A stretch of DNA of 64,000 nucleotides, from positions 1,647 through 65,646 of the forward strand of contig CAYRZH010000005.1 in NCBI GenBank assembly GCA_964428845.1, written 5' to 3'. Origin of the DNA: an uncultured Candidatus Saccharibacteria bacterium. GTDB lineage: Bacteria > Patescibacteriota > Minisyncoccia > Phycocordibacterales > DATGWK01. The translations under genes and the position numbers were made by a program. Position 1 is the stretch's first letter. Every line of letters begins with the position of its first letter. Shown here piece by piece: positions 4,483 through 57,723 of this stretch. A model generated the notes under the pieces. It worked only from the letters and a program-made list of their open reading frames with translations, searched no databases and was not told where the DNA came from.

Positions 4483-4511
4483 TTGACACATACCAATGAT
4501 GAGTGTAGAAT
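4483..4511 (+). promoter_or_regulatory. Sigma70-type promoter TTGACA-17-TAGAAT driving GC-rich cassette 1
   Basis: TTGACA at 4483-4488, a 17-nt spacer and TAGAAT at 4506-4511, 15 nt after the upstream stop codon. Confidence 0.45.
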
Positions 4512-4679
4512 GCGGCGAGTATACAAAGCAGTTCTTTGGCGTAACCTTGTTGGTGGTCATAGCCAAAAGATGCTGATAAAAACTTTAATAGTTCGGCATT
4601 TTCTGGCTATGACTACCAGTGTGGTATGTCCTCTGGCAAAATCAAAACTGGCGAAAGCCTTGAGAAAGGGAAAAGCGCC

Positions 4680-5291: not shown

Positions 5292-5392
5292 CACTTGGGA
5301 CTTAGTCCCTCGGGTCTTCTGGACCTCTTGATCTTTGTCCTTTGTATCGCGGCCATTTGCCGCAACGTACTCCAAAACGGTAACAATGGAAG

Positions 5393-5421
5393 CCTCGGGC
5401 AACAATGCTCGGGGTTTTTTT
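5393..5421 (+). terminator. Putative intrinsic terminator of cassette 1 (7-bp stem with 2 G-U pairs, 8-nt loop, T7)
   Basis: CCTCGGG-caacaatg-CTCGGGG followed by TTTTTTT. A second T-run follows at 5441-5447. Confidence 0.3.
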
Positions 5422-5461
5422 GTGAGCTGCCTGTCCACCGCTTTTTTTGTCTCAATTTTCC

Positions 5462-12515: not shown

Positions 12516-14175
12516 AAAAATCACATTTATCGTCATAGCCTTTCTCCTGGTTTTCTTTTTGATTAGAATGCCTGGCTTAGACTTGCCTTATCACCAAGAT
12601 GAATGGAAAAATGTTTCTGCGTCATCGGGCGTGGAGGAGGCTGGGAAGTTTTTTGCTCATCCGCCACTTATGCAGATGATTCTTGTTCTCGGCTATCAGA
12701 TTTTTGGGGTTACATACTTTAGATTTTTACCACTCATTTTTTCTCTTGCATCAGCGATCCTCCTGTATTTTGTTGTGAGAAGTCGATTAGGAGGAAAGGC
12801 AGCAATTTGGTCACTTGCTATTTTTACGGTCCTTTTCTACAACATTTTAGGCTCGCTTGTGCCGGATGTTGATGGTGCCATATTGCCGTTCCTTTTTCTT
12901 TTCTCTGTATATCTCTACGACAAGTGGAATGCTGCTCCAGTAGGCGAGAAAACAAAGTGGTTTATTTTTATGATCACCGTACTTTTAGTCGGCTTCTTAA
13001 CCAAATTGAGTTTTATTTTGGTGGTTGGGGCACTCGCTCTCGACTACATCATTGGAAACTGGCGAAACATGAATCCTAAAAGGATTAGCTACGTGGCTTT
13101 GGTAGCTGCTCTCTTCGGAGCTCTCTATGTCGTGCTTCTGTATGTCATCAAGATTCTCTATCCAGCTTTTGATATAAGCATTATGATGGGTCATGCCAAC
13201 CAGTATTCTGAAGGCATAGGCCGGAACTGGATACAGATAGTAGTGCAGGGCGTCAAAGCGCTTTTTTATCTTTCACCACTTGCACTTGTCCCATTATTTT
13301 TTATTTCGAGGGATACTTTAAAAAGCACTCGAGTTTTTAATATTTATTTAGTTCTGGGTCTTATTTTCTATTTTATTATCTTCGACTTTTCGAGAGGGGC
13401 ACTCGATAAATATTTGATGTTCGCGATTATCCCGCTTGCGGTTTTGGTTGGTTCCATATTTGCAAAGATTTTTGGGACGAAAGTAGACAAAAACTTTTGG
13501 CGACTGTTTTTCCCGATAGGGCTAATCCTTTCTTTTGGTCTTATTTTGCTTAATTTCCTGACACACGCTGTCTTGCCTCTTTACCCAAAAACTCTCTGGT
13601 TTAGCCGCGTTTTGCACGGGGATTGGCTCATACTGAACCCTTTCAATGGAGGTTCTGGACCCCTGGGTTTTTATGTTTCCTTTTTGTTTATTGCTATGGC
13701 CTTTATTGTTGCACTAGCCCTTGTCTGTGTTGGCTTATTTAAGAAAGAATGGCAACAAGGTATCGCTCTGGTAATAATTTTGATCGGGTTCTCATACAAT
13801 GCAGTTTTTGCAGAAGAATTGTTTTTTGGAAAAATAAACGGAAGTGCGCCGGAGGCACTCGCGGAGGCAGTAAATTTTATCGAACATGACGAAGATATAA
13901 AGAGCGTTCTCACTTACAACGATACTGGAGCGGGCCTACTTGCCAAAGTCGGAAAGTACGCTGGGCGTATATATGCCACACCGGAGTCTGAAGGTAAGTA
14001 CAAGGAGATTTTTTCTAACCACACAGCTAAAGGAGGGCATTTCTTGGTGGTCGGTATTCCACCTCTTGGGACAGAAACTTTCTATGGGAAATTTTTTGCC
14101 GAGTGTGATAGTCTCTATGAATCGATATCAGGCCGGGTGCACGCAAATGTATACAAGTGTGATATTTTCAAGTGA
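12505..14175 (+). CDS. Polytopic membrane glycosyltransferase, GT-C fold (ArnT/PMT/GT39-like)
   Basis: Start taken at ATG 12505 (AAAGGA SD-like site), 11-nt overlap with the upstream gene. More than 10 TM helices and a periplasmic loop after TM1 (LDLPYHQDEWKN) typical of GT-C enzymes. Confidence 0.45.
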   Translation: MPNKKITFIVIAFLLVFFLIRMPGLDLPYHQDEWKNVSASSGVEEAGKFFAHPPLMQMILVLGYQIFGVTYFRFLPLIFSLASAILLYFVVRSRLGGKAAIWSLAIFTVLFYNILGSLVPDVDGAILPFLFLFSVYLYDKWNAAPVGEKTKWFIFMITVLLVGFLTKLSFILVVGALALDYIIGNWRNMNPKRISYVALVAALFGALYVVLLYVIKILYPAFDISIMMGHANQYSEGIGRNWIQIVVQGVKALFYLSPLALVPLFFISRDTLKSTRVFNIYLVLGLIFYFIIFDFSRGALDKYLMFAIIPLAVLVGSIFAKIFGTKVDKNFWRLFFPIGLILSFGLILLNFLTHAVLPLYPKTLWFSRVLHGDWLILNPFNGGSGPLGFYVSFLFIAMAFIVALALVCVGLFKKEWQQGIALVIILIGFSYNAVFAEELFFGKINGSAPEALAEAVNFIEHDEDIKSVLTYNDTGAGLLAKVGKYAGRIYATPESEGKYKEIFSNHTAKGGHFLVVGIPPLGTETFYGKFFAECDSLYESISGRVHANVYKCDIFK

Positions 14176-20148: not shown

Positions 20149-20176
20149 TTGACATTTGTGCTAGTTTGTGTAATCA
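20149..20176 (+). promoter_or_regulatory. Sigma70-type promoter TTGACA-16-TAATCA driving GC-rich cassette 2, preceded by the 10-bp palindrome GTAATATTAC (20133-20142)
   Basis: TTGACA at 20149-20154 and TAATCA at 20171-20176. AAAGGAA SD-like site 7 nt before ATG 20241. Confidence 0.35.
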
Positions 20177-20240
20177 TTAAGTCAGGACATCCTTCAAGTA
20201 CAAATCGAAACGAAACCACCCTTTTGAAAGGAATAGAAAC

Positions 20241-20798
20241 ATGAAATTGCTTGATGAAGCTATCCTTTTTGCGGGCTCCCGAAGAGGGGCTCCGCTAAGT
20301 GATCTCGAGGTCACGCTCCTCGTCCTACTCATGGACAGGGTCAGGTGGCCGGTGCCGCAGCAGGTCTTCGAGGCCTGGGAGGGGAACTTCTACAACTGCG
20401 CTGTCGAGCTGGGTATCGGGAGGCCTGGGGAGGAAGAAGTCTTTCTCGTTCGCCGACCGAACACCGATCGGTATTACCCCGGTCAGTGGCATATGCCGGG
20501 GAAGGTCATTCTGCCGGGGATGAATATCCAAACCACTCTGGCGGCTCTCATTGACAATGAACTTGGTGGTGTGGATCTCGGACATATGACTCGGATCGAT
20601 ACATTCGAATTCTCGAAGGTTGATCGTCCGCGTGGTCAAGGTGTCTGTTTCCTGTTCCACGCTTCTGTGGATGTTGCGACCGCGGAACTGCTTCCCAACG
20701 GCCAGTTCTTCCCGGTTGACCAACTGCCGGAACCAATGATCGGCCACCACATCCCCATGATCAGAAGGCTGTTCTACGGTCGAGGCATCTCGCTCTAG
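20241..20798 (+). CDS. Nudix-fold protein with a degenerate Nudix box (GC-rich cassette 2)
   Basis: PGQWHMPGKVILPGMNIQTTLAALIDNELGGV occupies the Nudix box (GX5EX7REUXEEXGU) but most catalytic Glu/Arg residues are replaced. About 60-65% G+C. Confidence 0.5.
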   Translation: MKLLDEAILFAGSRRGAPLSDLEVTLLVLLMDRVRWPVPQQVFEAWEGNFYNCAVELGIGRPGEEEVFLVRRPNTDRYYPGQWHMPGKVILPGMNIQTTLAALIDNELGGVDLGHMTRIDTFEFSKVDRPRGQGVCFLFHASVDVATAELLPNGQFFPVDQLPEPMIGHHIPMIRRLFYGRGISL

Positions 20799-20814
20799 GA
20801 CCAGCACTCATACC

Positions 20815-20853
20815 CCCCCCGACCGCGCATGCGCGGTCGGGGGTTATTTTTTT
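20815..20853 (+). terminator. Strong rho-independent terminator (12-bp GC stem, CATG loop, T9)
   Basis: CCCCCGACCGCG-catg-CGCGGTCGGGGG followed by TTATTTTTTT. The T-run supplies the last codons and stop of the convergent DegT-like gene. Confidence 0.7.
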
Positions 20854-21941
20854 AGAAACAAACTTATTTGCTCACAAACATAGTCCACCTCTTCATCCTT
20901 TAGATATGGGTGTATTGGGAGGGATAAGATGTGATTTACTTTTTCCTCTACCACAGGGAGATTTAGTGAATTGTATTCAGCAAAACATTTCTGTTTATGA
21001 ATCGGAATAGGGTAGTGAATGAGGGTGCCTATCTCTTTTTCTTTGAGAAACGATTGGAGTCCGTCGCGATTTTCTGCTTCTATTACAAACAAATGATTTA
21101 CATGCCCCACATCTTTTCTAAGACCGGGCAATATAATCCCCCGAACACTCTGTAGACCTTCCAAATACTTCTCGGCTATTCTCACTCGGCGCTCATTGTT
21201 TTGATCCAACGTTTTTAGTTTTTCCGACAAAATTGTCGCTTGTAATTCGTCGAGTCGGCTATTTATACCGCGGACCTCATGCTCGTATCTGTTTTTCTGC
21301 CCATAATTGCGTAAAGAAATACATTTTTCTGCGAGTGAAGCATCATTTGTGGTTATAAGTCCTCCGTCGCCGACTCCGCCTAAGTTTTTTGTCGGATAAA
21401 AACTAAAACAGCCAAAAACTCCAAATGATCCGACTTTTTTACCTTTAAACTCTGCTCCGTGTGCTTGAGCGCAATCTTCTACCATATGCAGGTTATGTTT
21501 TTTTGATATATCCAATAAAGAGTCCATGTCTGCGGGCTGACCATACAAGTGGACAGGAATAATGGCGCGTGTTCTTGAAGTTATCTTTTCTTCTATCTTT
21601 TTGACATCAATGTGGTAGAAATCATCAATATCGACAAAAACAGGTATTGCTCCTACTGCCGATATGGAGAGTGCCGTCGCGACTGCTGAAAGGGGTGTGG
21701 TGATGACTTCATCACCGGGACCAATCCCAAGAGCAAGAAGAGCAATCTGGAGAGCTTCCAACCCGTTAGCAACGCCAACTGCATGTTTTGTGTCGATGTA
21801 CCCGGCAAAATCTGTCTCAAACTTTTTAACCTCTGGACCAAGCACATAATGTCCAGATTCAAAAACCCTCTGCATTGCCGCGAGGATATCCCTTTTTTCT
21901 TCAGCGCTTTGGCCGTTTAGTATATTGAATGAAATCTTCAT
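20844..21941 (-). CDS. DegT/DnrJ/EryC1/StrS-family PLP-dependent sugar aminotransferase
   Basis: Start taken at MKISFNILNG (ATG rc at 21939-21941). Conserved region ...VLGPEVKKFETDFAGYI... and PLP-lysine context (FSFYPTKNLG). Confidence 0.75.
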   Translation of the reverse strand: MKISFNILNGQSAEEKRDILAAMQRVFESGHYVLGPEVKKFETDFAGYIDTKHAVGVANGLEALQIALLALGIGPGDEVITTPLSAVATALSISAVGAIPVFVDIDDFYHIDVKKIEEKITSRTRAIIPVHLYGQPADMDSLLDISKKHNLHMVEDCAQAHGAEFKGKKVGSFGVFGCFSFYPTKNLGGVGDGGLITTNDASLAEKCISLRNYGQKNRYEHEVRGINSRLDELQATILSEKLKTLDQNNERRVRIAEKYLEGLQSVRGIILPGLRKDVGHVNHLFVIEAENRDGLQSFLKEKEIGTLIHYPIPIHKQKCFAEYNSLNLPVVEEKVNHILSLPIHPYLKDEEVDYVCEQISLFLKK

Positions 21942-22326
21942 AATTTCTAATGTAATCTTTCTCGTCGTATTCTTGGTCGGCCAAAACCAGGAGGGAAGTC
22001 CCTGGCTTAAAGCTGTGCATGACGTGCCATACATACGGGAAAAGCCACAGTCCTTCGTTATTTTTGTTTAATACGACGCTCGTTTTGTTTTTTCCGTCGT
22101 CGAGATCTACTATGCATTCTCCCGTGGTGCAGATCAAGATTTGGTTTGTGAGGTGGTGGGTGTGACCTCCGCGCTTATCGGCGTCTTTCATGCCAGTAAT
22201 AGAAAGCACCTTCTTTATTGGGAAAGGTATACTACCTTCTTTTGCCGGTTGGTCTGCTTGAAGCATACAGAGAGTGCCATTTTTAGTATCGAAGGAAGGG
22301 AATTGTATCAGTTTAAGGGGGGGCAT
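21901..22326 (-). CDS. WxcM/FdtA-like cupin, probable dTDP-4-keto-6-deoxyhexose 3,4-ketoisomerase
   Basis: 141-aa cupin with ...KRGGHTHHLTNQILICTTGEC... and LWLFPYVWHVMHSF motifs. Confidence 0.55.
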   Translation of the reverse strand: MPPLKLIQFPSFDTKNGTLCMLQADQPAKEGSIPFPIKKVLSITGMKDADKRGGHTHHLTNQILICTTGECIVDLDDGKNKTSVVLNKNNEGLWLFPYVWHVMHSFKPGTSLLVLADQEYDEKDYIRNYEDFIQYTKRPKR

Positions 22327-22347
22327 AATTTGTGCAGTAGACTTTAA

Positions 22348-23358
22348 TTATATACCAAACACTCGATCGAGCCCCAGCATCTTTAACAACCTCTTTTTTC
22401 TACCAGGTGGCATGTTTCGAGTACGTTCCTCATTCAATCGTCTGCAGATGGGCAAGTATTCATCGAGTGTCATTTTTGGCTTCCAGCCAAGTGCCCGTAT
22501 TTTTGTCGCGTCAAGCGAATATCTCACGTCCTGACCGGGTCTATTTTCCCCATGCTCATAAAAATTTTCATCTTTCCCCATGACTCTTAGTACCTTTTTT
22601 ATAACCTCTAAATTGGTCAGTTCTTCATTTCGAGTGATATTGTAAATTTCACCATCAGCTCCCTTTTCCATAATCAAAAGTATCGCCGAACAATTGTCTT
22701 CAGTATAAATCCAGTCGCGTGTGTATGAGCCATCTCCATCAACTATAGCCCTTTGTCCTTTAATAGCCCGCTTCATTACCCTAGGGATGAGTTTTTCGGG
22801 GCGCTGACCGTAGCCATAGTTGTTGGAACTTCGACAAATTCTCCATCGTAGGCCGTAGGTACGACCCCATCCCATGACGAGTTGGTCGGCAGCGGCCTTT
22901 GTCGCTGAGTAAGGATTTGAAGGTGTCAGTCTGTCTGTTTCCTTAAAAGACCCTTCTAGTATGTCCCCATAAACCTCATCTGTTGAAATCTGAACAAATA
23001 CTGGACGTTTTTCCTCGGGCATTCTCCGCACAAGCTCAAGAAGGTTATATACACCCTGCACATTGCTCTTGAAGAAGGCAAGATTGTCTTTGATCGAATT
23101 AACCACATGTGACTCGGCTGCAAAGTTTACAATCCAGGCTACACCTTCAGGTAATTCCTTTAAGTCGCAAATATCCTTCTTTATAAAACTATAATTTGGG
23201 AAACGCTCAAAGTTGGTGTCTTCCCTTATGGCATAGGTCATTTTGTCTACGTTTATGACAAAAAATCCTTTTTTTAAAACCATTTCTACAAAAGCGCTTC
23301 CGATAAAGCCAAGGCCGCCGGTTACCAGTATTTTTTTAGGATTGCTTACGTCTGCCAT
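22348..23358 (-). CDS. rfbB: dTDP-glucose 4,6-dehydratase (RmlB/RfbB)
   Basis: KILVTGGLGFIGSAFV Rossmann motif and YSATKAAADQL catalytic YxxxK. Length 336 aa. Confidence 0.8.
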   Translation of the reverse strand: MADVSNPKKILVTGGLGFIGSAFVEMVLKKGFFVINVDKMTYAIREDTNFERFPNYSFIKKDICDLKELPEGVAWIVNFAAESHVVNSIKDNLAFFKSNVQGVYNLLELVRRMPEEKRPVFVQISTDEVYGDILEGSFKETDRLTPSNPYSATKAAADQLVMGWGRTYGLRWRICRSSNNYGYGQRPEKLIPRVMKRAIKGQRAIVDGDGSYTRDWIYTEDNCSAILLIMEKGADGEIYNITRNEELTNLEVIKKVLRVMGKDENFYEHGENRPGQDVRYSLDATKIRALGWKPKMTLDEYLPICRRLNEERTRNMPPGRKKRLLKMLGLDRVFGI

Positions 23359-23362
23359 TTTA

Positions 23363-24316
23363 TTATCTAGTCGCTCGAAGGACTATATACTGCTTGATTA
23401 CTCGTAATATATCAAGTTTCTTAACACACCCATAGGTCCAAGATGAATCGATTGCCCGGACACGATCATAGGCTTTTTGCAGGGCTCTCACATATAACCG
23501 ATAAATCGTCCGGTCGAATATCGAGACCGGGTAGGGACGGATTTTTCCACCTGATGTCATGTAAATTTTAAGACCGTGGAAGTGGTATAGGATAAGGGGA
23601 AATTTTTTATTGGAAATTTTTTCGGTCCCTTCGATCTTGCCACCTTTTTTTACGTCAAACTTAAAACGGTCTGTATTCCACGAAGCTACATCCACACCAG
23701 GGTCTGTAAGTACGAAGACTTTTTTAAATCGTGTTGGCCAGTCATTTAAATATAACTGGTCGCCAAACTTTCCGTCTTCATATCGATTGTAGCACCACTC
23801 TATACACCTGTCTTTCCACCATCTTAAACACTCCAAACCACACTCGTCGTTTCTAAAAATCATCATTCCAACATTATATTTACCACTCGTCTTCTCGCGC
23901 TCTTTATGTTTCTCGGAAAATGCGTGGGGGATTATCATTATCGAATTGTTACCAAATTGGTGGTAAATATCATCAACTGGTGCGTAAAAGTACATATCAA
24001 CATCAACATAAGTGACAGTGTCCATACTCGGATTTTTTTCGAGGATATAGAGAGGTAAGCATGAGCTAAACATCCAACAATATTCTGCCGTTGTTCGACC
24101 GGGTTTTACCGCAAGCATTCGGTCATCTTCAACATCAGATAGTTTCAGTAGTTTTGTTCTATCTAAATTTAGTTTTTGGAGCATCGAGTGGCTTTCGTTG
24201 TCCATACAGAGCATCCAGAGGACAAAATCTGGGCATTGTTCCGTTAGGGAACGATGGAGAGCTACCGCCCGGGTCAAAAAGCCCTTATCAAAAACCGCGC
24301 AGAAGTTATACATCAT
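23363..24316 (-). CDS. Nucleotide-diphospho-sugar transferase (GT-A fold, GT8/Nucleotid_trans-like)
   Basis: 317 aa with DxD-type motifs (YVDVDMYF) and a HFHG motif. Not searched. Confidence 0.45.
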   Translation of the reverse strand: MMYNFCAVFDKGFLTRAVALHRSLTEQCPDFVLWMLCMDNESHSMLQKLNLDRTKLLKLSDVEDDRMLAVKPGRTTAEYCWMFSSCLPLYILEKNPSMDTVTYVDVDMYFYAPVDDIYHQFGNNSIMIIPHAFSEKHKEREKTSGKYNVGMMIFRNDECGLECLRWWKDRCIEWCYNRYEDGKFGDQLYLNDWPTRFKKVFVLTDPGVDVASWNTDRFKFDVKKGGKIEGTEKISNKKFPLILYHFHGLKIYMTSGGKIRPYPVSIFDRTIYRLYVRALQKAYDRVRAIDSSWTYGCVKKLDILRVIKQYIVLRATR

Positions 24317-24349
24317 TTCAAAATACTATCATTTTTGACTTTTATGCAC

Positions 24350-24376
24350 AAAAAAACGGCCCCGAAGGCGGGGCCG
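24350..24376 (-). terminator. Rho-independent terminator of GC-rich cassette 3 (minus strand)
   Basis: On the minus strand: CGGCCCCG-ccuu-CGGGGCCG followed by TTTTTTT. The T-run continues into the -35 (TTGTGC-17-TAGTAT) of the downstream GT8-like gene. Confidence 0.6.
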
Positions 24377-24416
24377 CTGTGTTCTTCTCTGTCTTCACTC
24401 TGTCCGACTGGTCCGG

Positions 24417-25103
24417 TCACCGGCCGACAGGCTTCCATCCACCGCGCACATCGGCGAAGGATGGGCGATGAGGATCGAGAACCCATTGGAGCAGGTAACA
24501 GTTGTGGTCGACGATTCGCGGGTCCCCTCGCCTCACTTCATCCGGGGTGAAGATTGTCCACTCACCCTCGAAACCCTCCACGTCCACCACAGAGACCTTC
24601 CTGCGGTGCATGATTGTCGCGCAAGCGCAACGTCTTTCGGGTTCGTCGTGGATCGTCACACCGAGGAACTGGATACCCGGTCTCATGGGGAGGAGATCAT
24701 CTCCGGCGTCACGGAAATCCCTTTCCAGGGCGCTTGCTGGCGTATCGAATCTTCGGATAACTGTGCACGGGCTGTGGTACAGCCCGGCCCACGCGTCGCC
24801 GACCTCGGTCGCCGGATCGCGAAGCTTCAGGGCAAATCCCAGAAACTCGTTACCCTTCCACACTTCATGAACGATCTGAACCGAAGCGCAGAATCCTGCC
24901 ATGCCGACGAGAAGTTCGAAGACCTCTTTCGGCACGCCGCCCATCGTTGTACTCCTGCTTCCATGCCGGGCCCGTTCGGTCAGCTCTGCGATGTGGGAGA
25001 TGATTGGGGCGAGCTCCACGAGCGGAATGTCCCTGATCATCCCCAGGGCACTAAGCGCCAGGGACTGGTGAGAGCTGTCTCGCGTCTGCGCAATCGTCTT
25101 CAT
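24417..25103 (-). CDS. Hypothetical protein, 228 aa (GC-rich cassette 3)
   Basis: ORF in ~57% G+C DNA, flanked on the same strand by a perfect consensus promoter and a terminator. AAAGAAAGGG SD-like site before the ATG. No family recognised. Confidence 0.5.
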   Translation of the reverse strand: MKTIAQTRDSSHQSLALSALGMIRDIPLVELAPIISHIAELTERARHGSRSTTMGGVPKEVFELLVGMAGFCASVQIVHEVWKGNEFLGFALKLRDPATEVGDAWAGLYHSPCTVIRRFDTPASALERDFRDAGDDLLPMRPGIQFLGVTIHDEPERRCACATIMHRRKVSVVDVEGFEGEWTIFTPDEVRRGDPRIVDHNCYLLQWVLDPHRPSFADVRGGWKPVGR

Positions 25104-25166
25104 GGCAACCCTTTCTTTGGTTGGTTGTGTTCGGGGCGAAAACCACGGGAACTCCTATCTTCCTGT

Positions 25167-25195
25167 ATTATAGTACTTCTATTGACTATTGTCAA
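25167..25195 (-). promoter_or_regulatory. Perfect consensus sigma70 promoter TTGACA-17-TATAAT (minus strand) for cassette 3
   Basis: On the minus strand TTGACA (25195-25190), a 17-nt spacer and TATAAT (25172-25167). The -35 is embedded in the partial palindrome TTGACaataGTCAA. Confidence 0.5.
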
Positions 25196-25211
25196 ATGAC
25201 CTAAAATTGTT

Positions 25212-25936
25212 CTAAGATTTCCGTGCCAAAACCACGTTATCCATATACAAATCCTGGTTTGCCGGCAAGATTTTTGAAAGCACAATTCCTAAAATCGTGA
25301 AAGGTGAAATGAGTAAAACATACCAAAATACTCGAAGCCAGTATGACTGAATCCATTCAAGTCTTTTGTGAATAAAGCAAGCGACAAGCTGAAATATGAC
25401 GCGAACGTCCGACGCAGTTTTTATATGTCTTTCAATTTTAAAACCACTTTTTCTTAGGAGGTGTGCGAGACCAAAAGATGAGTATCTTGCATAATCGTGG
25501 GGCTTTTCGTGCTCGTCCCAAACGAAAGGCACGGTGAGAAGAAGAGCACCTCCAGGCATCGTTACTCGCGCTACCTCTTTCAAGAACTGATCAGGATTAA
25601 AAACATGTTCCAATACTTGAGTGGCAATAACAGAATCGAAGGAGTTATTCTCAAAAGGAAATTTCTCGCCACTGTACCAGGTATCAATCCTCTTGAAGCG
25701 AGCGCGATTTTCTGGCGAGTCAAATTCCATGCCGATATAAGGTGAAACATGGGTAAAAATCTTCTCGTAAGGCCGCTCGCCACAGCCGACATCAAGCGTT
25801 TTCCCGTGGATTTCTGCACCAAGACACTACCTGGCCCTTCGTAGCTCTCGCCGAACCAAATAGAAGGGATTGATAAAGATACCCAATAATCCCGGGTTAA
25901 AATATTGGTCGCGAATATATGATTTTATGCCAGTCA
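25212..25936 (-). pseudogene. Class I SAM-dependent methyltransferase interrupted by a single in-frame TAG (complement 25827-25829)
   Basis: The frame reads MTGIKSYIRDQYFNPG...RRAR-TAG-CLGAEIHGKTLDVGCGERPYEK... and continues into ORF 25212-25730. The SAM motif I (LDVGCG) lies downstream of the stop with no in-frame start, so the gene is disrupted as assembled. Confidence 0.5.
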
Positions 25937-25941
25937 TCGGA

Positions 25942-30183: not shown

Positions 30184-31248
30184 TTAAGATCTGATATGTT
30201 TCCACTCAAGCGGCGTGCCACGCTCGATGTCTTTCTTTGCTGTCATGCCCATAACTTTGTGAATATTTTCCGGTGCCAGTCCAAAAGCTGGTCGGATACA
30301 TCGAACATTTTTTTTAGTAAATTTTTCGCCCATCTTTATATCCGAAACAGCAAAAAGTGAGCGACGATGCTCTGCCCCAATCTCTTCCTCCTTATCTCGT
30401 GCGTAGTTCGGTTTCCCTAGGGAGGATTCGACTTCTCTAACAGATTTAACTAATGATGCAAATTCTTTCGGCTCAAGTGAAAACGACGAATCAGGCCCAC
30501 CGTCAGAACGGGCGAGGGTCATATGTTTCTCGATTATGCTCGCGCCAAGAACTACCGCACCGAGAGAAACATTTATTCCAAGGGAGTGATCTGACAAGCC
30601 ACTTACTACTCCGAATCTTTTTGCAATATCTGGAATGGTCTTTAGATTCATCTTGCTTGGGTCGGCGGGGTAGATACTTACGCAATGAAGGACTGCGATC
30701 TCCTTTGTTCCAGATTTTTGTAAGGTCTTTATCGCTAAAGAGATTTCTTTGGCAGAAGCCATACCTCGCGCCAATATAACGGGCTTTTTGGTCTTGCCGA
30801 TCTTTTCTAGTAAAGGCAGGTCTGTAATCTCGTATGAAGCAACCTTATAGAGAGGAATTTTCAATTTTTCTAGAAAATCTACTGCTGTCTCGTCGAAGGG
30901 GGTTGAAAATACGACTAGACCTTTTCTTTCGGCGTACTTCTTTAGTTTCGCTTGCCATTTCCAGGGGGTATATGCTTCCTCGTATAGTTTATAAAGAATT
31001 TTATCTTTCCAAACATTATTTACCCTAACCCGGAAGTAGTCGTTGTCGCAGTTCAAAGTCATTGTGTCTGGTGTATATGTCTGAAATTTGATGGCATCAA
31101 CTTTTGCCAATGCCGCGGCATCGATTATTTCCATGGCTCGTTTCAGGCTTTGATTATGGTTGCCAGACATTTCTGCTACGATGAAGACCGGCTCTCCCGG
31201 GCCGATCCTCCTTTTACCCTTAGGTGTTTTAATCGTTATGTGTCTCAT
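30184..31248 (-). CDS. pseI: N-acetylneuraminate-synthase family enzyme, probable pseudaminic acid synthase PseI
   Basis: NeuB TIM-barrel (IFIVAEMSGNHNQSLKRAMEIIDAAALAKVDAIKFQTY) plus a C-terminal SAF domain. Co-operonic with pseB/pseC/pseH/pseF homologs. Confidence 0.7.
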   Translation of the reverse strand: MRHITIKTPKGKRRIGPGEPVFIVAEMSGNHNQSLKRAMEIIDAAALAKVDAIKFQTYTPDTMTLNCDNDYFRVRVNNVWKDKILYKLYEEAYTPWKWQAKLKKYAERKGLVVFSTPFDETAVDFLEKLKIPLYKVASYEITDLPLLEKIGKTKKPVILARGMASAKEISLAIKTLQKSGTKEIAVLHCVSIYPADPSKMNLKTIPDIAKRFGVVSGLSDHSLGINVSLGAVVLGASIIEKHMTLARSDGGPDSSFSLEPKEFASLVKSVREVESSLGKPNYARDKEEEIGAEHRRSLFAVSDIKMGEKFTKKNVRCIRPAFGLAPENIHKVMGMTAKKDIERGTPLEWKHIRS

Positions 31249-31259
31249 TTATCAGTATT

Positions 31260-31877
31260 TTACTTTTTCTCTAGGTATCTCTCGATAAGAAACAAATCCC
31301 TGGGTTCTCTGATAAGAATGGAATTTATTCCAGCTTCCTTGGCACCCCCTATGTCACAGACAATATCATCACCGATCATTAGGGCCTCGTGTGCCTCTAC
31401 CTCGAAAGAGGTTAGAACGTCCTTAAAAACTTTTTTGTGAGGTTTTTCAAACTCCTTACCATTTTCCTGTGCGAAGAAAAATTTATCAAAATATTGCTCC
31501 AACTGCAACGCCTGAACTTTTCTTTTTTGTACCTCTACTGCACCATTTGTGAGTATAGTGAGCTTATATTTTTTGGACAAACTTCTCAAAACCGGCTCTG
31601 CCTCTGGATAAAGTTTCAGCTCCGGTAAATGCCCACGGTAAACTCGGACGAGTTCCTCTATCGAAATATCATCGAGTGGAAACTTCTCTTTGAGTTCATC
31701 AAAATTTCTGCCGCGCCCATTTCCAAGGAAGGACTCACACAATGAATTAAAAATTTCTTCTTTTGATAGATTTCTTTTATTGCTTACATAGTCAGCAACA
31801 GCACGAAAACCGCTTAAAACATATTCATGTTCGCTCGAGAGGGTGTTGTCTAGATCAAAGATTAATAATTTTATCAT
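31260..31877 (-). CDS. HAD-superfamily hydrolase (subfamily IA-like)
   Basis: N-terminal LLIFDLDNTL motif I and ...MIGDDIVCDIGGAKEAG motif IV. Confidence 0.6.
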   Translation of the reverse strand: MIKLLIFDLDNTLSSEHEYVLSGFRAVADYVSNKRNLSKEEIFNSLCESFLGNGRGRNFDELKEKFPLDDISIEELVRVYRGHLPELKLYPEAEPVLRSLSKKYKLTILTNGAVEVQKRKVQALQLEQYFDKFFFAQENGKEFEKPHKKVFKDVLTSFEVEAHEALMIGDDIVCDIGGAKEAGINSILIREPRDLFLIERYLEKK

Positions 31878-32841
31878 GGGGAATGAACAGATCTTTGTTG
31901 TAACGCATCATGACCAAATCGGCCTGGAAACTTTTCTGCTCTGGCACTTTCTCGCCACGAAGAAGTCTCACAAGAAATTCAGCGCTGTTTCCTCCTGCAG
32001 CCAGCGCTAGGGGTGAACCTCCGCCGAAACGAGCTGGATTGGCTTCAAGGAAAAAAATCTTGCCATCTTTTGTTTTGAAACATTGAATTGTGTTGTGGCC
32101 GATAAGGCCAAGCGTCTGGCCGATTTTTTTTGTCAAAGCAATCATTTCTTTTTCATTTTTTGTAATCGTGACTTTTGATTCTCCACCCACGACTTTCAGT
32201 CGAATTCGCGGGATGGTCGAAATTGGCTTTCCAGAGAAATCAGCGAAATAGTCAATAGAGTATTCTGTGCCCTCGATTTTTTTCTGGATTATTTTTCCGG
32301 TGAGCTCTTGTTTTTTTAGTTCTTCGATGCTTCCAATCACCTCTACGCCTATACTAGCGGCACCAATTATGGGCTTTATGATGCAAGGGAATTGCAAATT
32401 TTTAGGTGGCTTGAGCCAGCTTTCTATGGGTCTTAAGTTTTTTGCTTTTAGAAATTTGTAAAACTTCCACTTATCATTGCAGATTGATGCGGCCTTTAAA
32501 GATGGCACCATGATCTTTGTACCCAATTTTTCAAAGCGCTTCTTGTTTTTCGCAAGATACATTACATCTTCGTCTCGGGTAGGGATAATCAGGGAAATTT
32601 TTTCTCTGGTAATGATTTCGGCCAGACGGGCAGGGAATTTTTTGCTATCCATGCGTGGCACTAGATATCCTTTATCAGCGAGGTAGAGACCGGGGCAAAA
32701 TGGGTCAATGTCGGTGGCGACGGTTTTACCCTCTACACCGAGAGATGAAAGAGCGGTGCGGAAGTGCTCAAAAAGGTGGCTCTTATTGCCGATACTTGTA
32801 AATAGAAAGTTTACGGACTTATTTGATTTTGCTTTTTTCAT
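31855..32841 (-). CDS. ATP-grasp domain protein
   Basis: 328 aa with an ATP-grasp-like layout (...CIIKPIIGAASIGVEVI..., ...FFLEANPARFGGG...). Possibly an amide-forming tailoring enzyme for the nonulosonate. Confidence 0.45.
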   Translation of the reverse strand: MKKAKSNKSVNFLFTSIGNKSHLFEHFRTALSSLGVEGKTVATDIDPFCPGLYLADKGYLVPRMDSKKFPARLAEIITREKISLIIPTRDEDVMYLAKNKKRFEKLGTKIMVPSLKAASICNDKWKFYKFLKAKNLRPIESWLKPPKNLQFPCIIKPIIGAASIGVEVIGSIEELKKQELTGKIIQKKIEGTEYSIDYFADFSGKPISTIPRIRLKVVGGESKVTITKNEKEMIALTKKIGQTLGLIGHNTIQCFKTKDGKIFFLEANPARFGGGSPLALAAGGNSAEFLVRLLRGEKVPEQKSFQADLVMMRYNKDLFIPHDKIINL

Positions 32842-33766
32842 GAGAGACTATCTGTCTTATGCCATCGGCAATGCTTATTTCCGGCGACCATCCGGTGGTG
32901 TCTTTGAGCCTGCTTATGTCGCCTCGACTGGCTTCAGGAAATATGGACTCATTGACTTCGGTAAATTTGGCTTCCGGAATTTCTTTTTGTACGAGCCCTG
33001 CGACCTCTGCGATCGTGTTGCTTTTGCCAAAACTCAAATTGATAACGCCAGTGGCATTCTTACAGATTGCCATTTTCATTAACCCTTTCGCCACATCGGT
33101 AGCGTGAATGTAATCAAATGAATTATTTTTGTCAAAGATTTTTAGTGTTTCGCCGCGAAGAGCACCACGTACCCAGCGCGAAATGATGTCTCGCGAATCT
33201 TTACCGTAGACCCGAAAGATCCTGGCATGCGCATAGGTAAATTTACCGCCCATCTGTTCGCTTAAAAATTCAATATCTCGCTCGGTTTGTAATTTGGCTA
33301 TGCCACATAGGTTGCGTGGTTCGATTGCTGAAGATTCACTAAGAATATTGTCCCGTCCTACAACGTTGTAGAGTGATTTATGGTAAATCAGATAACTTGA
33401 AGCAAAAATAATTTTTTTGAGTTCTTCACCTTGGACTATTCTTCGAAGAGTATAATGGGATGCCAAAATATTGTTGTAAAAATTACTTTCCCAAAAATCT
33501 AGACTCTCGGTACTACGCTCAAAATCGGCGGCAAGATGGAAAACATATTCTGGTTCGAAATGGAACGAAAATTGCTCGTCTCTGTGGGACAGGTCACATT
33601 GGAAATACTGAACATCACTAGGGAAGGCTCGAGGCCGCTCGAGCATGTCAACCGCGCGAACCACAGCTCCTTCGGCAGTAAGTAGGCCTACAAGTTCCTG
33701 GCCTATTACACCGGCTGCGCCAGTAACCAAAACTTTTTTATCCTTAAGTGTAACGAGATTTTCCAT
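32819..33766 (-). CDS. NAD-dependent epimerase/dehydratase (extended SDR)
   Basis: VLVTGAAGVIGQELV Rossmann motif and YxxxK (YGIAKLQTE). Confidence 0.65.
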   Translation of the reverse strand: MENLVTLKDKKVLVTGAAGVIGQELVGLLTAEGAVVRAVDMLERPRAFPSDVQYFQCDLSHRDEQFSFHFEPEYVFHLAADFERSTESLDFWESNFYNNILASHYTLRRIVQGEELKKIIFASSYLIYHKSLYNVVGRDNILSESSAIEPRNLCGIAKLQTERDIEFLSEQMGGKFTYAHARIFRVYGKDSRDIISRWVRGALRGETLKIFDKNNSFDYIHATDVAKGLMKMAICKNATGVINLSFGKSNTIAEVAGLVQKEIPEAKFTEVNESIFPEASRGDISRLKDTTGWSPEISIADGIRQIVSHEKSKIK

Positions 33767-33771
33767 TGAAG

Positions 33772-34320
33772 TTACTTCTTATTTATAATGGAGTGAATAA
33801 GCGAATCAGAAAAACGATTTTTTTTCCAAACATGATCGGGCAATCTAGCGTCTCGCTTGAAGCCAGATTTTTCTAAAAGATTGATGTGAAACTTCCTAAA
33901 TGCCCATGTTTCCGTAAAAATTTTGTGCAAAATGAGCTTTTTAAAGGCATAATCGCGGAGCATTACCATGGTTTCGAGAAAAAGCATTGAATATTCGGAG
34001 TGCCTTTTTTCTGTACCTGTTTCCAGGATAAATGATATTTCTCCGCGTTTATTTTCCCAATCAATATGCACAATACCGCAATACCCGATAAGTCTGCCAT
34101 TTTTGTCTAAAATTGAAAAGAGAACCTGGTTCTTATCCCTTTTGAGTTTTTTGTAAAATTTTTCCTGATCCTTGTCAGTCAGCGGTTTGCTCTGCCTCAA
34201 GATGTCCATTTGCTCATTACGCCATTTTTTAAGAAATGGTAAATCTTCTTTGAGTAGATTTGAGAGAATAATATGTCGGCCCAACGAAATTCTTTTTCTT
34301 TTCATAAATTTTAGTATCAA
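33772..34320 (-). CDS. pseH: GNAT N-acetyltransferase, PseH-like
   Basis: 182-aa GNAT whose N-terminal region (LKEDLPFLKKWRNEQMDILRQ) resembles PseH-type acetyltransferases. Located within the pse operon. Confidence 0.5.
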   Translation of the reverse strand: MILKFMKRKRISLGRHIILSNLLKEDLPFLKKWRNEQMDILRQSKPLTDKDQEKFYKKLKRDKNQVLFSILDKNGRLIGYCGIVHIDWENKRGEISFILETGTEKRHSEYSMLFLETMVMLRDYAFKKLILHKIFTETWAFRKFHINLLEKSGFKRDARLPDHVWKKNRFSDSLIHSIINKK

Positions 34321-35222
34321 ACTTTCCGCGAATGAGTAGCAAAACAGATAAGATTACGGCCGAGACCCATATCAGCCAACGCTTCATAAAATTTGTTAAC
34401 TTTTTTAGGTGAGGTTTTGTGCACAAGATTTTCTAACTCGACTCGCGCCTGATGACAAGATTTGCCCTTGGCTTTGTCGATAACGTAGTTGGTGTCTTTG
34501 TTAAGAAGATTTATATCGACAGGGAAGTCGGCCGTAAACCGCTCTGGGCGAAGTCCGGCTGCCTGAACGAGTGCCTCAAGCCCCGTTTTATTGAAGTAGG
34601 AAATATGATCTGGTATAACAATCCAAAAAGGACTTTTCACATAACCATGCTTGTACAAATATAGTTGTAGAATCGAAAAATCGTTTGGTACCACTACAAC
34701 TATAACTCCTTGATTATGAAGTAGTTTCTTGCAATCACCGAGCAATTGGAAAGGATTCAAAACATGCTCCAGAGTATGCTCCATGAAAATAACATCAAAC
34801 TTCTGTTTTTCCTTTATGAGTGATGGGATTTGCTCATAGATATCTCCTTTACGGATAAATGGCAGGCACCTTTTGTTGTGAGTCTTGGTGCCGGAACTAC
34901 TATAGTCGAGGCCTGTGACGGCAAAACCTTTTTTTCTGAAGTAATCTAGAGCCCAGCCTTCGCCGCAGCCAATGTCTAAAAAGCTAAATTTTTCACGGCG
35001 CATTGGTCCGAGCAACTCTTTTATTGTCAGATACTTATCGTCTAGCTTGTTTTTAAAAAAAATAATTTCATCTTTCGAATACGATTGTCTATAGTTACCC
35101 CTTGATTGTTCGTAATACTTATCTATATAGTACTGTTCCAACTCTTTAGGGTTTGGTTTATGTTTCAATTCAAAATAACCAAACTTATTTTTTCTGACAT
35201 TCCTGAAGAGATTATTGCCCAT
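34317..35222 (-). CDS. Class I SAM-dependent methyltransferase
   Basis: FLDIGCGEGWALDYF (motif I) and VTGLDYS. Confidence 0.6.
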   Translation of the reverse strand: MGNNLFRNVRKNKFGYFELKHKPNPKELEQYYIDKYYEQSRGNYRQSYSKDEIIFFKNKLDDKYLTIKELLGPMRREKFSFLDIGCGEGWALDYFRKKGFAVTGLDYSSSGTKTHNKRCLPFIRKGDIYEQIPSLIKEKQKFDVIFMEHTLEHVLNPFQLLGDCKKLLHNQGVIVVVVPNDFSILQLYLYKHGYVKSPFWIVIPDHISYFNKTGLEALVQAAGLRPERFTADFPVDINLLNKDTNYVIDKAKGKSCHQARVELENLVHKTSPKKVNKFYEALADMGLGRNLICFATHSRKV

Positions 35223-35241
35223 TTGGGGGTGGCTAGACTGT

Positions 35242-35913
35242 TTAAACTATTTTGCGGACGACACGAAAGGCTTCAGCACCAGTGAGACCGACTTCAATTC
35301 CACGATACTTCGAAAGTATTTCAATACCCTCAAGCGAACGAGGATGAGGATATTTTCGTAATTCGTCCCCATAGAAATTCATCAAAGCTTTTTTCTCCTC
35401 AACATATTTTGAGATATCAACGTAGTGATTTGGTTTAAAAACGCGGTGGTCCTTAATCTGCCATTCTGTGCAGGAAAGAACTTCAAAAGATAGAATTTCG
35501 GATACACAAAAGTTGGGTTGTGGTCGGCAAGCAGTTAACACTGCTCCGCAGGTTAGTCGGTGGTCTACATTCAGGTCATCGATATGATGTGTATAAACCA
35601 CATCGGGCTTAACTTCAGCAATAACCTTTTCTACTGCTTGTGCCAGACTGATCAGAGAAACCGTATCGAATTTGTTATCCGGGAAATTTTCTAGGAAAAG
35701 TTTGGCACCCAATTTATCAGAGACACCTCTAGCTTGAGAAAATCTTTTTTCAGGATCACTTACAGATCCCCGAGAATCTTCTCCGTTTGCTAGGATTAGA
35801 ATGGATATAGAATCACCGCGGTCACGGTGAACGCAAAGCGTGCCGCCAGCGCCGAGAACCTCATCGTCTGGGTGCGCGACTACAGCCAAAATTTTTTTAT
35901 TTTTTTCCATCAT
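35242..35913 (-). CDS. PIG-L/LmbE-family N-acetylglucosaminyl deacetylase
   Basis: ILAVVAHPDDEVLGAGGTL and HxDH (HHIDDLNVDH) motifs. Confidence 0.65.
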   Translation of the reverse strand: MMEKNKKILAVVAHPDDEVLGAGGTLCVHRDRGDSISILILANGEDSRGSVSDPEKRFSQARGVSDKLGAKLFLENFPDNKFDTVSLISLAQAVEKVIAEVKPDVVYTHHIDDLNVDHRLTCGAVLTACRPQPNFCVSEILSFEVLSCTEWQIKDHRVFKPNHYVDISKYVEEKKALMNFYGDELRKYPHPRSLEGIEILSKYRGIEVGLTGAEAFRVVRKIV

Positions 35914-36631
35914 TTTTTATTGGTGAAATTTTAACTTTTGCAGTTACGGTATCTCCCGTAAATTCTGCTTCACTAAATTCAAATCTCTGTTCTCCAACGT
36001 CCAAAAACGCCCTTGGGTAACCATCAGCATCAAGCATTCTTATAAAATCATATAGCATTCTTCCTGACAAATCACCCAGGATTCTACTTTGTTCGGGCTT
36101 CCTGCGTTTGAAAGTAAAACCACGACCTCGTTGGGGTTTTGGCTTCGGTTGCTTCAAAAGTATTTCGCTCATCATTTCATAGACGATGGCAGAAATCTTA
36201 TAAAATATATCTTGAGCAGAGCCTCGACTCATGTCAACGGGCTTTTTTAAATAAATCGGTCCAGTATCAAGCCCTGCCTCGACGCGAAGTGCGGAAATTT
36301 TTACTTTGTAAATTCCTCTAACGATGTGGTTCTGGATCGGGCTACCGCCGCGACCGTATGGCAGGTTTGCTTCATGAAATACAACACACTCAAAATTTTC
36401 ATAAATTTCAGGCGGGATTATCCAAGACCAATGTGGGAAAAATACAAACCTCGGTTTTATTTTAGAAAGACGTTCAAAAGTAAGTTTTTTGGGCGATGTT
36501 ATGAGAAGTTTCCGGTAACCCTTCGGGACTTTCCATTCACTGAACCTTTTTATGTTCCAGGGTCGAATCGTCGCTACGACAATATTGTCGAGGTTAGCAT
36601 TATCTTTTTGCCTTTTTGTTTTTAAGCTCAT
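35897..36631 (-). CDS. Formyltransferase-domain protein (Fmt N-terminal-domain-like)
   Basis: ...VVFHEANLPYGRGGSPIQNHIVRG... matches the formyl_trans_N catalytic region (the Asn/His/Asp triad context). Confidence 0.5.
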   Translation of the reverse strand: MSLKTKRQKDNANLDNIVVATIRPWNIKRFSEWKVPKGYRKLLITSPKKLTFERLSKIKPRFVFFPHWSWIIPPEIYENFECVVFHEANLPYGRGGSPIQNHIVRGIYKVKISALRVEAGLDTGPIYLKKPVDMSRGSAQDIFYKISAIVYEMMSEILLKQPKPKPQRGRGFTFKRRKPEQSRILGDLSGRMLYDFIRMLDADGYPRAFLDVGEQRFEFSEAEFTGDTVTAKVKISPIKNDGKK

Positions 36632-37317
36632 TTCAGCAGTTTATATTTTATTTCAGCAATTTTCCAATCCTCCTCATTATCAATGTCCTGCATTTCTGAT
36701 TCTGGTATTGGTATAGATCTAGTATTATCAGTGAAGATCTTTTTTTGATTCAAGAAATTTTTCACATTTAGGTAAAAAAACTGTCCTGTATCATGATATG
36801 CAGGTTCCAAATCCTGTGAGCGCACCACAGCATTTTCTGGCCACATCATTTTTAATTTTCCAAACTCGTCGATCCTCAAGGCTCTCTGAATTGGGTAAGA
36901 AAAACGGGCGACTGGCAAAACTGAATCGGCACCAGTCTCTACTATCAAATCCATTGCTTTCTTGAGATTTTCAATTTTTAAAAAGGGAGCGGTCGGGTAA
37001 ATACAGCAGGCCAAATCAAATTCTCGGCCAAGACTTTTGTACCGAACGAGAACTTCTTCCATAACGTCGGGGATCTGTGCAAGATCACCCGAATTCTTCT
37101 CTGACCTAAAGAAGGGGACTTTGGCACCAAAACCTAAGGCGACTTCGGCGATCTCTTTATCATCTGTTGAGACCATTACTTCGTCAAAAAGTCCGCTCGT
37201 TAGTGCGGCATCAATAGAATATTTTATAATCGGCTGTCCGGAAAAGAATTTTATATTTTTCTTCGGAATTCTTTTGCTACCGCCTCGCGCAGGTATAATG
37301 GCAACTATCTTTTTCAT
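36628..37317 (-). CDS. pseF: CMP-nonulosonate (pseudaminic acid) cytidylyltransferase, PseF/NeuA-like
   Basis: IVAIIPARGGSKRIPKKNIKFFSGQPII N-terminal motif of the acylneuraminate cytidylyltransferase family. Confidence 0.7.
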   Translation of the reverse strand: MKKIVAIIPARGGSKRIPKKNIKFFSGQPIIKYSIDAALTSGLFDEVMVSTDDKEIAEVALGFGAKVPFFRSEKNSGDLAQIPDVMEEVLVRYKSLGREFDLACCIYPTAPFLKIENLKKAMDLIVETGADSVLPVARFSYPIQRALRIDEFGKLKMMWPENAVVRSQDLEPAYHDTGQFFYLNVKNFLNQKKIFTDNTRSIPIPESEMQDIDNEEDWKIAEIKYKLLK

Positions 37318-37323
37318 AGGATG

Positions 37324-40569: not shown

Positions 40570-40645
40570 CAAACACCTCCTTCTTCCTGGTTTTAAGGTT
40601 TTTTATCTCGGAATAGGCACAAAAAATTACCCATGGTCCTATAGA

Positions 40646-40675
40646 TTTATACCACAACTTTATGAGTGGAGTCAA
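40646..40675 (-). promoter_or_regulatory. Sigma70 promoter TTGACT-18-TATAAA with extended -10 (TGgTATAAA), minus strand, for cassette 4
   Basis: On the minus strand TTGACT (40675-40670) then ...TGTGGTATAAAT. Confidence 0.4.
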
Positions 40676-57001: not shown

Positions 57002-57017
57002 AAAGCGCGCCGTCTTC

Positions 57018-57662: not shown

Positions 57663-57692
57663 GACACACTCTCCATTCAAAAGAACTTTCTT

Positions 57693-57713: not shown

Positions 57714-57723
57714 TTCTGCTACT

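Follow-up and report, generated by a model that had tools for sequence, protein, structure and literature searches.

A predicted self-contained, G+C-rich transcription unit for a divergent Nudix-fold protein beside amino-sugar genes in the Patescibacteria

In a 64,000-nucleotide stretch of DNA from an uncultured Candidatus Saccharibacteria bacterium (contig CAYRZH010000005.1, positions 1,647 to 65,646; hereafter the window), a G+C-rich gene with an ATG start encodes a protein of 228 amino acids (aa) on the minus strand (24417..25103). As read from the DNA, the locus constitutes an autonomous, monocistronic promoter-gene-terminator unit on this strand. Its protein family is tied to the module for nucleoside-diphosphate (NDP)-3-amino-3,6-dideoxyhexoses, consisting of 4,6-dehydratase, FdtA and DegT. 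By analogy with known systems, we consider it probable that this gene, predicted to be insulated and strongly transcribed, specifies a Nudix-fold protein that binds an NDP-sugar of the adjacent pathway and acts on it, perhaps by hydrolysis.

In the original prediction, the 228-aa protein was taken as an orphan, but this did not hold. Fifteen homologues were identified, with 44-55% identity across about 90% of the length, and when 1.84 billion representative proteins were searched with a profile, 123 clusters (at 50% identity) were retrieved, 100 of these below E = 1e-10. For comparison of gene neighbourhoods, 14 independent loci were examined, the sources being Saccharibacteria and Berkelbacteria metagenome-assembled genomes and metagenomic contigs, several of them from Hainich samples (0.1- and 0.2-µm fractions). 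Since no model of Pfam, NCBIfam, PADLOC or PHROGs matched the 228-aa protein, it is unannotated at the sequence level; the searches of PADLOC and PHROGs cover anti-phage defence and phage families, respectively. The deposited annotation (P0001) is a 175-aa protein starting at M54. The homologues, the invariant R46 and the confidently modelled N-terminal helices all cover the N-terminus, indicating that the 228-aa form is correct and that the deposited gene model, too short at this end, should be amended.

The homologues match the minus-strand product, in agreement with the strand and the self-contained unit originally proposed. On the plus strand, the same DNA carries an open reading frame (ORF) of 243 aa (24468..25199). 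This antisense ORF gave no match in Pfam, NCBIfam and PADLOC, and only a chance-level 13-bit match (E 0.17) in PHROGs. Of nine homologous loci, seven have one to six stop codons in its frame, and only the two with the highest G+C content leave it open. The antisense ORF, regarded as spurious from the beginning, is a by-product of G+C-rich codons and not a gene.

The sole 12/12 match to TTGACA-17-TATAAT in the window is located at 25195..25167 on the minus strand (TTGACAATAGTCAATAGAAGTACTATAAT), and this predicted sigma-70-type promoter scored highest among all promoter-like sites of the 64-kb sequence. From dinucleotide shuffles, 0.02 such sites were expected by chance, and two of 100 shuffles contained one. 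Transcription from this site is predicted to start at around 25160. The closest counterpart of the locus is on contig L007, which is syntenic with the window over 10 genes (about 70% identical in DNA and 56-79% in protein), and which carries a 57% identical ortholog between the same methyltransferase and GT8-like genes. The L007 ortholog is also preceded by a perfect TTGACA-17-TATAAT, with the 17-nt spacer identical at 11 of 17 bases. Judged from this retention at about 70% DNA identity, the promoter appears to be real; its strength we infer from the sequence. A palindrome (TTGACaataGTCAA, also given as TTGACAATAGTCAA) overlaps the -35 element at 25182..25195 (minus strand), and had been suggested as a regulator site. 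As the L007 counterpart reads TTGACAATATTTAA and the palindrome is thus not conserved, its role as an operator is unsupported.

The predicted transcript begins with a 5' untranslated region (UTR) of about 57 nt (25104..25160, minus strand), in which a Shine-Dalgarno-like AAAGGG lies 5 nt ahead of the ATG. Folding of the window 5' UTR detected no significant structure (z = +0.75), and this leader does not align with those of L007 or L008. The L007 leader folds into a hairpin unrelated to the window leader, and no family was matched in the Rfam scan of the leaders. A riboswitch or attenuator was considered for the leader, and was dropped for lack of both an Rfam match and a 5' UTR structure in the window. 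At the 3' end, an intrinsic terminator is predicted at 24350..24378 (minus strand), composed of a 9-bp stem made entirely of G+C and a UUCG loop (GGCCCCGCC/UUCG/GGGGCC(G), 24376-24357), followed by U7 at 24356-24350. Its fold energy is -26.6 kcal/mol (z = -2.7). The L007 terminator is built on another stem (GGCTCCC...GGGAGCC), followed by the same GTTTTTTTGT. Both the perfect promoter and the G+C hairpin terminator of the original prediction were thus confirmed, and all coordinates given there proved to be correct.

A search for the same arrangement elsewhere, as had been proposed, gave positive results beyond the perfect promoter of L007. TTGACA-type promoters matching at 9-12 of 12 positions were found upstream of the Nudix-family gene in eight loci. 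The 3' flank is covered in 13 loci, of which 11 have a terminator of the hairpin-plus-T type after the gene (the window, L001, L003, L006, L007, L008, L009, L010, L014, L015 and L016), with none evident in L002 or L013.

The unit stands out in base composition. Its G+C content is 0.565 over 24308-25196, and reaches 0.60 in the coding sequence and 0.69 at third codon positions (GC3), against a window mean of 0.424 and values of 0.39-0.44 for the flanking genes (GC3 0.36-0.49). Measured in 12 loci, the G+C content of the gene exceeded that of the remaining contig in every case, the difference ranging from 3.5 to 18 points; the G+C excess is a long-standing trait of the family. Comparison of conserved codons between the window and L007 shows saturation at four-fold degenerate sites (0.28 identical versus 0.28 expected), and the G+C content at such sites (GC4) is 0.64 and 0.69 in the two genes, compared with 0.34-0.47 in the flanking genes of the window. 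As synonymous sites are saturated and yet the G+C is retained, the high G+C was not left behind by a recent insertion. It is explained either by maintenance of the G+C-rich codon usage or by a swap of the coding region, in one lineage, for another G+C-rich allele. Selection, perhaps connected with high expression, may keep up the excess, or else recurrent exchange among alleles that are richer in G+C. Replacement by a xenolog was checked with codon-position identities and with pairwise identities against DegT and FdtA. The gene is more diverged from L007 (57%) than are its immediate neighbours (72-79%), but not more than another gene of the cluster (56.5%). Within the family, pairwise identities level off at 40-60%, and their correlation with the DegT identities is weak (r = 0.34). 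The gene had been described as foreign from its composition. The composition is indeed anomalous, but the gene is present at the same site and equally G+C-rich in L007, exceeds its flanks in all 12 loci and accompanies the same amino-sugar genes, from which we conclude that it is not a recent random insertion.

The structure of the 228-aa protein was modelled with AlphaFold2 from the family alignment (predicted local distance difference test, pLDDT, 89.5; predicted template modelling score, pTM, 0.84). The model consists of three N-terminal helices of 20, 21 and 11 residues (within residues 4-69), followed by an alpha/beta Nudix core (about 70-228). With a cutoff of E <= 1e-3, Foldseek search against PDB gave 106 matches, and each of the 50 that were listed is a Nudix-fold protein or domain. 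The top match was E. coli Gmm (2gt2/1rya; E 4e-6, TM-target 0.65), and the others included NUDT15, the C-terminal domain of MutY/MUTYH, NrtR, AraR, MTH1 and TRPM2. In the viral structure library BFVD, the matches listed were overwhelmingly Nudix hydrolases. The modelled alpha/beta/alpha sandwich places the 228-aa protein within the Nudix superfamily at the level of fold. The structural check that had been proposed for the protein pointed to a Nudix fold.

At the level of sequence, a profile of 93 family members aligned the Nudix box in register with that of E. coli Gmm (hhalign probability 41%, E 2.8e-4), while a 16-sequence profile failed to do so. Against a neighbouring 185-aa protein that passes the Pfam NUDIX model, the family profile gave a probability of 91% (E 1e-6, 161 columns). 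A profile search of PDB sequences returned only a weak match to MutT and designed helical repeats. By the Pfam gathering threshold the window protein lies outside NUDIX (PF00293), with no match at E <= 1, and this model touched only four of 101 relatives (best E 0.0036). The classical Nudix box reads G-x5-E-x7-R-E-U-x-E-E-x-G-U. The window protein reads, in register, T114-x5-D120-x7-R128-D129-F-R-D132-A133-G134-D135, and thus lacks the box of classical Nudix hydrolases. The family consensus shows G113, D120 (80%), R128 (95%), L/D/N129, E132 (78%), a non-acidic residue at 133 and G135 (72%). The most conserved residues of the family are R95 (100%), R157 (99%), R46 (97%) and R128 (95%), together with P58 and W182. 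Such a pattern of near-invariant arginines would be expected of a diphosphate-binding pocket. In contrast, the cysteines and histidines once flagged for metal binding found no support: seven of 93 relatives have Cys at position 159, 68 of 93 have Gly in place of C113, most close relatives have Trp in place of C202, and neither a CxxC nor an HxxH motif exists in the 228-aa protein. The family is an unnamed, highly divergent branch of Nudix proteins with a conserved three-helix extension at the N-terminus.

The gene is located within a minus-strand polysaccharide cluster of about 24 kb, which contains Wzm/Wzt, a nonulosonic-acid set of NeuB/PseB/PseC type, methyltransferases and glycosyltransferases. 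A polysaccharide-type context was observed in all 14 independent loci, and 13 of the 14 have one or more of DegT, FdtA and a 4,6-dehydratase-type short-chain dehydrogenase/reductase (SDR) within four genes. An amino-sugar neighbour of this kind was noted for the window, L001, L002, L003-5, L006, L007, L009, L010, L014 and L015/16. The neighbours in L008 are a methyltransferase and a GT8-like gene only, and the 5-kb contig L013 carries only glycosyltransferase/Wzy genes. In P0043, a family relative is fused to an SDR epimerase/dehydratase. The orientation of the gene relative to the amino-sugar module differs among loci, and is inverted in L015/L016. The family is rare and patchy across classes of the Candidate Phyla Radiation (CPR), with one locus among 185,579 species representatives. 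As the family adjoins genes for amino-sugar biosynthesis, the protein is most likely an accessory enzyme handling nucleotide-sugars and not a random foreign insert. A mobile-element origin was considered and rejected, as no relatives of the 228-aa protein were detected among IMG/VR viral contigs, INPHARED phages or PLSDB plasmids.

The proposed mechanism is modelled on Gmm. In E. coli, gmm adjoins gmd and fcl in the colanic-acid cluster, where Gmm is thought to control or clean the NDP-sugar pool. The 228-aa protein would likewise bind a nucleoside-diphosphate sugar of the pathway through R46, R95, R128 and R157. The bound NDP-sugar would then be acted on, most probably by hydrolysis, and the pool of pathway intermediates or product would thereby be trimmed or cleaned. 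Both substrate and chemistry are what we infer by this analogy, and hydrolysis in particular is put forward tentatively, with clearly less assurance than the reading as a whole. Several observations weigh against it. Of the EE pair, the second Glu is missing, and D, N or L takes the place of the Glu in RE. The metal site formed by three carboxylates in classical pyrophosphatases is therefore incomplete here, and the protein could lack hydrolytic or even any enzymatic activity. The likeness to Gmm lies in the fold and in a marginal profile match (probability 41%). The dehydratase-FdtA-DegT route is complete without the 228-aa protein, for which an accessory role is therefore only presumed. In addition, genes of pathway enzymes do not usually have a perfect consensus promoter, and the poor tracking of DegT (r = 0.34) would also fit independent horizontal movement.

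Among the alternatives, the one that survives best, unlikely as it is, is a non-enzymatic sensor or regulator of the NrtR or Bacteroides AraR type, which would bind a sugar nucleotide of the pathway, control the glycan cluster and repress its own promoter. Strong promoters are typical of autorepressed regulators, and the overlap of the palindrome with the -35 element, the degenerate Nudix box, the additional conserved helical domain at the N-terminus and the presence of NrtR (3gz5) and AraR (5bs6) among the fold matches would all suit such a role. The palindrome is, however, not kept in the L007 ortholog, and no DNA-binding domain was recognised in the protein, the matches to helix-turn-helix (HTH) and helix-hairpin-helix models being at chance level and confined to one to four of 101 relatives. 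Moreover, the invariant Arg/Asp/Glu pattern in the register of the box suggests a retained active site.

Slightly less likely still is a non-hydrolytic, single-domain analogue of the EvaA-type NDP-4-keto-6-deoxyhexose 2,3-dehydratase, which would feed a 3-keto sugar to DegT. Known Nudix-fold 2,3-dehydratases act right after 4,6-dehydratases and before C3-aminotransferases (PMC8987622), and the degenerate metal-binding box fits non-hydrolytic chemistry. In L003-5 and, as read from the sequence, in L001, the family gene stands beside DegT and a TylC3/EvaC-type C-methyltransferase, recalling the EvaA-EvaB-EvaC trio. No match to Pfam Hexose_dehydrat (PF03559) was obtained, however, with the window protein or 101 relatives, and EvaA was not among the 50 best PDB fold matches. 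EvaA is composed of two tandem Nudix domains with about 470 aa in all, against one domain here, and FdtA, which already supplies a 3-keto sugar, co-occurs in most loci.

The last alternative, a recently acquired, 'moron'-like foreign cassette unrelated to the cluster and encoding a Cys/His metal-binding orphan, is very improbable: its own promoter and terminator, a G+C content 18 points over the flanks, the rarity and patchiness of the family, its poor correlation with DegT and the filling of variable slots by other G+C-rich single-gene units in related genomes speak for it, but the ortholog stands at the same site behind the same promoter in the syntenic L007, amino-sugar genes accompany the family in 13 of 14 loci, G+C (including GC4) has been retained over saturated synonymous sites, phage, plasmid and viral-contig relatives are missing from the collections searched, and the Cys/His motifs are not conserved. 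With homologues, variable Cys/His residues and amino-sugar neighbours at hand, the claims of an orphan, of metal binding and of no relation to the cluster are refuted.

The unit of the 228-aa gene is not the only one of its kind. At least four G+C-rich promoter-gene-terminator units were recognised in the window, at 4483-5425, 20149-20850, 24350-25195 and 57000-57752, and the three best promoter matches of the window (12/12, 11/12 and 11/12) all precede G+C-rich units, as do two matches at 10/12. The second unit (20149..20850, plus strand) is convergent on DegT, with the putative promoter TTGACA-17-AATCAT and a terminator (CCCCCGACCGCGCATGCGCGGTCGGGGG, then T's) that forms a perfect 11-bp G+C hairpin. 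It encodes the 185-aa protein mentioned above (20241-20798), at a distance of 3.6 kb from the 228-aa gene. This protein passes Pfam NUDIX (26.4 bits versus 21.1) with a box almost free of Glu, and, by the hhalign comparison given above, is distantly homologous to the 228-aa family over its whole length. The second unit is found at the same site in L007, and a search of 5.8 billion proteins with the 185-aa protein gave only itself. In the third unit (4483-5425, plus strand; GC3 0.65), the putative promoter TTGACA-17-TAGAAT (11/12) and a leader of about 115 nt precede a 221-aa ORF (4626-5291) without Pfam match, after which comes a hairpin followed by T7. This unit is located just upstream of a gene for a VirD4/TraD-like coupling protein (5491-7419). 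The fourth unit (57000-57752, minus strand) lies between the genes for an Obg-like GTPase and GatB, and consists of the putative promoter TTGACA-17-TATCAT (11/12), a leader hairpin and a gene for a 214-aa multi-pass membrane protein (57661-57018).

The same Obg-GatB gap was compared in L017 and L018, which are SecA-syntenic relatives of the window. It is occupied by an unrelated 291-aa protein in L017 (18230-19300) and by two small paralogous transmembrane proteins in L018 (18080-19123). In all three, the genes of the gap are G+C-richer than the flanks and have their own terminators. The promoter of the L017 gap reads TTGACA-17-TATTAT (11/12), and both L018 genes have only weaker candidates of TTGACT type (8/12). 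From these sequences, the gap looks like a variable cassette slot. A more general proposal, which we regard as doubtful though worth stating, is that G+C-rich single genes with a near-consensus TTGACA-type promoter and a strong terminator represent a common, as yet undescribed accessory format in Paceibacteria, in which the units would occupy conserved slots and be exchanged, inverted or replaced as whole, expression-ready cassettes. In its support, L015 carries the Nudix unit in inverted orientation and at another position. If this is true, the G+C excess would mark a donor pool rich in G+C that the units have in common, or else selection acting on cassettes with high expression. Acquired genes are as a rule A+T-rich, to which either option would be opposite.

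Two further genes were noted in passing. Inside the glycan cluster, a 346-aa ORF (39532-40675, minus strand; G+C 0.52, GC3 0.52) without Pfam match is preceded by a 10/12 promoter match, TTGACT-18-TATAAA (40675-40646), and may be a unit of the same style. On L019, a SecA-syntenic Paceibacteria contig, a 156-aa gene (13351-13821, minus strand; G+C 0.51 versus 0.42) is inserted between SecA/VTT and DsbB genes; a TTGACA-18-TACAAT promoter and a long leader with structure precede it, and a hairpin/T terminator follows.

The window as a whole is chromosomal and belongs to CPR/Patescibacteria (Paceibacteria). It carries genes for SecA, MurB, MurC, GatB and a P-type ATPase, and the named relatives of its SecA, at 68-71% identity, are nearly all from Candidatus Paceibacterota, Parcubacteria or Patescibacteria. 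Downstream of the 228-aa gene follows an operon on the same strand (20844..24316), composed of the genes for a GT8-like protein (23363-24316; its L015 ortholog matches GT8 weakly, E 7e-4) and, by Pfam, an NDP-hexose 4,6-dehydratase (22348-23358), FdtA 3,4-ketoisomerase (21901-22326) and a DegT aminotransferase (20844-22034). The last three form the standard route to NDP-3-amino-3,6-dideoxyhexoses. The operon is kept in the same gene order in L007, with 71-79% amino-acid identity. A putative promoter for it, TTGTGC-17-TAGTAT, was read from the sequence at 24323..24351 (minus strand), beginning within the T-run of the terminator; this promoter, weaker than that of the 228-aa gene, is conserved in L007 as TTGTAA-17-TATTAT, which likewise overlaps the T-run. 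Within the DegT coding region, a sub-threshold Rfam match to the fluoride riboswitch (21609-21725, minus strand; 21.7 bits versus a gathering score of 34, E 0.012) was judged to be due to chance. Beside DegT in L003 (1980-3242; PF08421/PF08484) and, by sequence reading only, in L001 (6977-8251), a TylC3/EvaC-type NDP-hexose C-methyltransferase is encoded, which suggests branched-chain amino sugars in some CPR glycans.

On the upstream side, a class-I methyltransferase gene (25212..25937, minus strand) ends with its stop codon 16 nt ahead of the -35 element. It is interrupted by an in-frame TAG at codon 37 (25829-25827), and the remainder is 77% identical to the L007 ortholog, which is intact at 241 aa. 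A pseudogene, an error of sequencing and reinitiation are possible explanations of the interrupted gene; ORF callers give only its 172-aa C-terminal part, without motif I for S-adenosylmethionine binding. Farther away, a pseudaminic/legionaminic-acid-like set was observed at 30184-39401 (minus strand), with PseB-like, PseC-like, CMP-transferase, formyltransferase-like, PIG-L deacetylase, GNAT, ATP-grasp, HAD and NeuB proteins. No nucleotide-sugar hydrolase of PseG/NeuC type was recognised among the ORFs scanned. The 228-aa protein was considered as a stand-in for the missing nucleotidase of this NeuB/PseB/PseC-type pathway and rejected. As no other family locus has homologues of NeuB, PseB or CMP-transferase nearby, the genetic link is to the amino-sugar module and not to the nonulosonic-acid genes.

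Promoter, terminator and Nudix fold are each of known kinds. What is new is a divergent Nudix family with an N-terminal extension, its link to 3-amino sugars, a conserved perfect promoter and a persistent G+C excess. The Nudix superfamily is thereby extended by a family of at least 123 sequence clusters for which neither Pfam nor NCBIfam has a model. To our knowledge, surface glycans of CPR bacteria are essentially unstudied, and if the 228-aa protein hydrolyses or remodels a dTDP-sugar, a step of control or editing would be added to the textbook pathway. A natural perfect sigma-70 consensus promoter that is kept in a relative could serve CPR genetics or heterologous expression. Furthermore, the persistence of G+C-rich codons in an A+T-rich genome after synonymous saturation bears on the selection of base composition in genes.

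With respect to known systems, the best structural match is Gmm/WcaH/NudD (PDB 1RYA, 2GT2). Both genes are situated inside a surface-polysaccharide cluster beside an NDP-hexose 4,6-dehydratase, and in both Nudix boxes part of the Glu cluster is lost, the family reading mostly R-L-x-x-E and Gmm R-L-T-M-A-E; in the 228-aa family, the retained Glu stands one position earlier. Of the marks of the Gmm family (sequence homology, the catalytic His base, which is His124 in Gmm, and the Arg triad at the leaving group), the comparison yielded the marginal profile match and the alignment of R95 and R128 with two arginines of Gmm, R37 and R65, which we take to be those holding the GDP leaving group. The identity to Gmm is about 20%, and the 228-aa protein matches neither Pfam NUDIX nor any model of NCBIfam. 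Unlike Gmm, the family carries an extra conserved helical N-terminus of 70 residues with R46 and P58. The pathway beside the 228-aa gene leads to a 3-amino-6-deoxyhexose through FdtA/DegT and not to GDP-fucose, and the gene is predicted to be transcribed alone from a consensus promoter, not within an operon.

The EvaA-type enzymes (PDB 4J7G; PMC8987622) share the Nudix fold, use the product of a 4,6-dehydratase as substrate and pass a keto-sugar to a DegT-type aminotransferase, and some loci of the 228-aa family also carry an EvaC-like C-methyltransferase. The single domain against the tandem of EvaA, the lack of PF03559 matches in 101 members and the usual presence of FdtA set the family apart. 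The regulators NrtR and AraR (PDB 3GZ5, 5BS6) resemble it in combining a degenerate Nudix domain with an added domain. Theirs, however, is a C-terminal winged-helix DNA-binding domain, whereas the 228-aa protein has long helices at the N-terminus, with no winged HTH and no HTH signature above chance level. Finally, phage 'morons' are conceived as autonomous accessory transcription units, and the 228-aa unit is similar to these in being a single gene with its own promoter and terminator and a composition unlike that of its neighbours. It differs from morons in that it is chromosomal, keeps its position in a diverged relative, is functionally tied to its neighbours and is richer in G+C, not in A+T, than its host.

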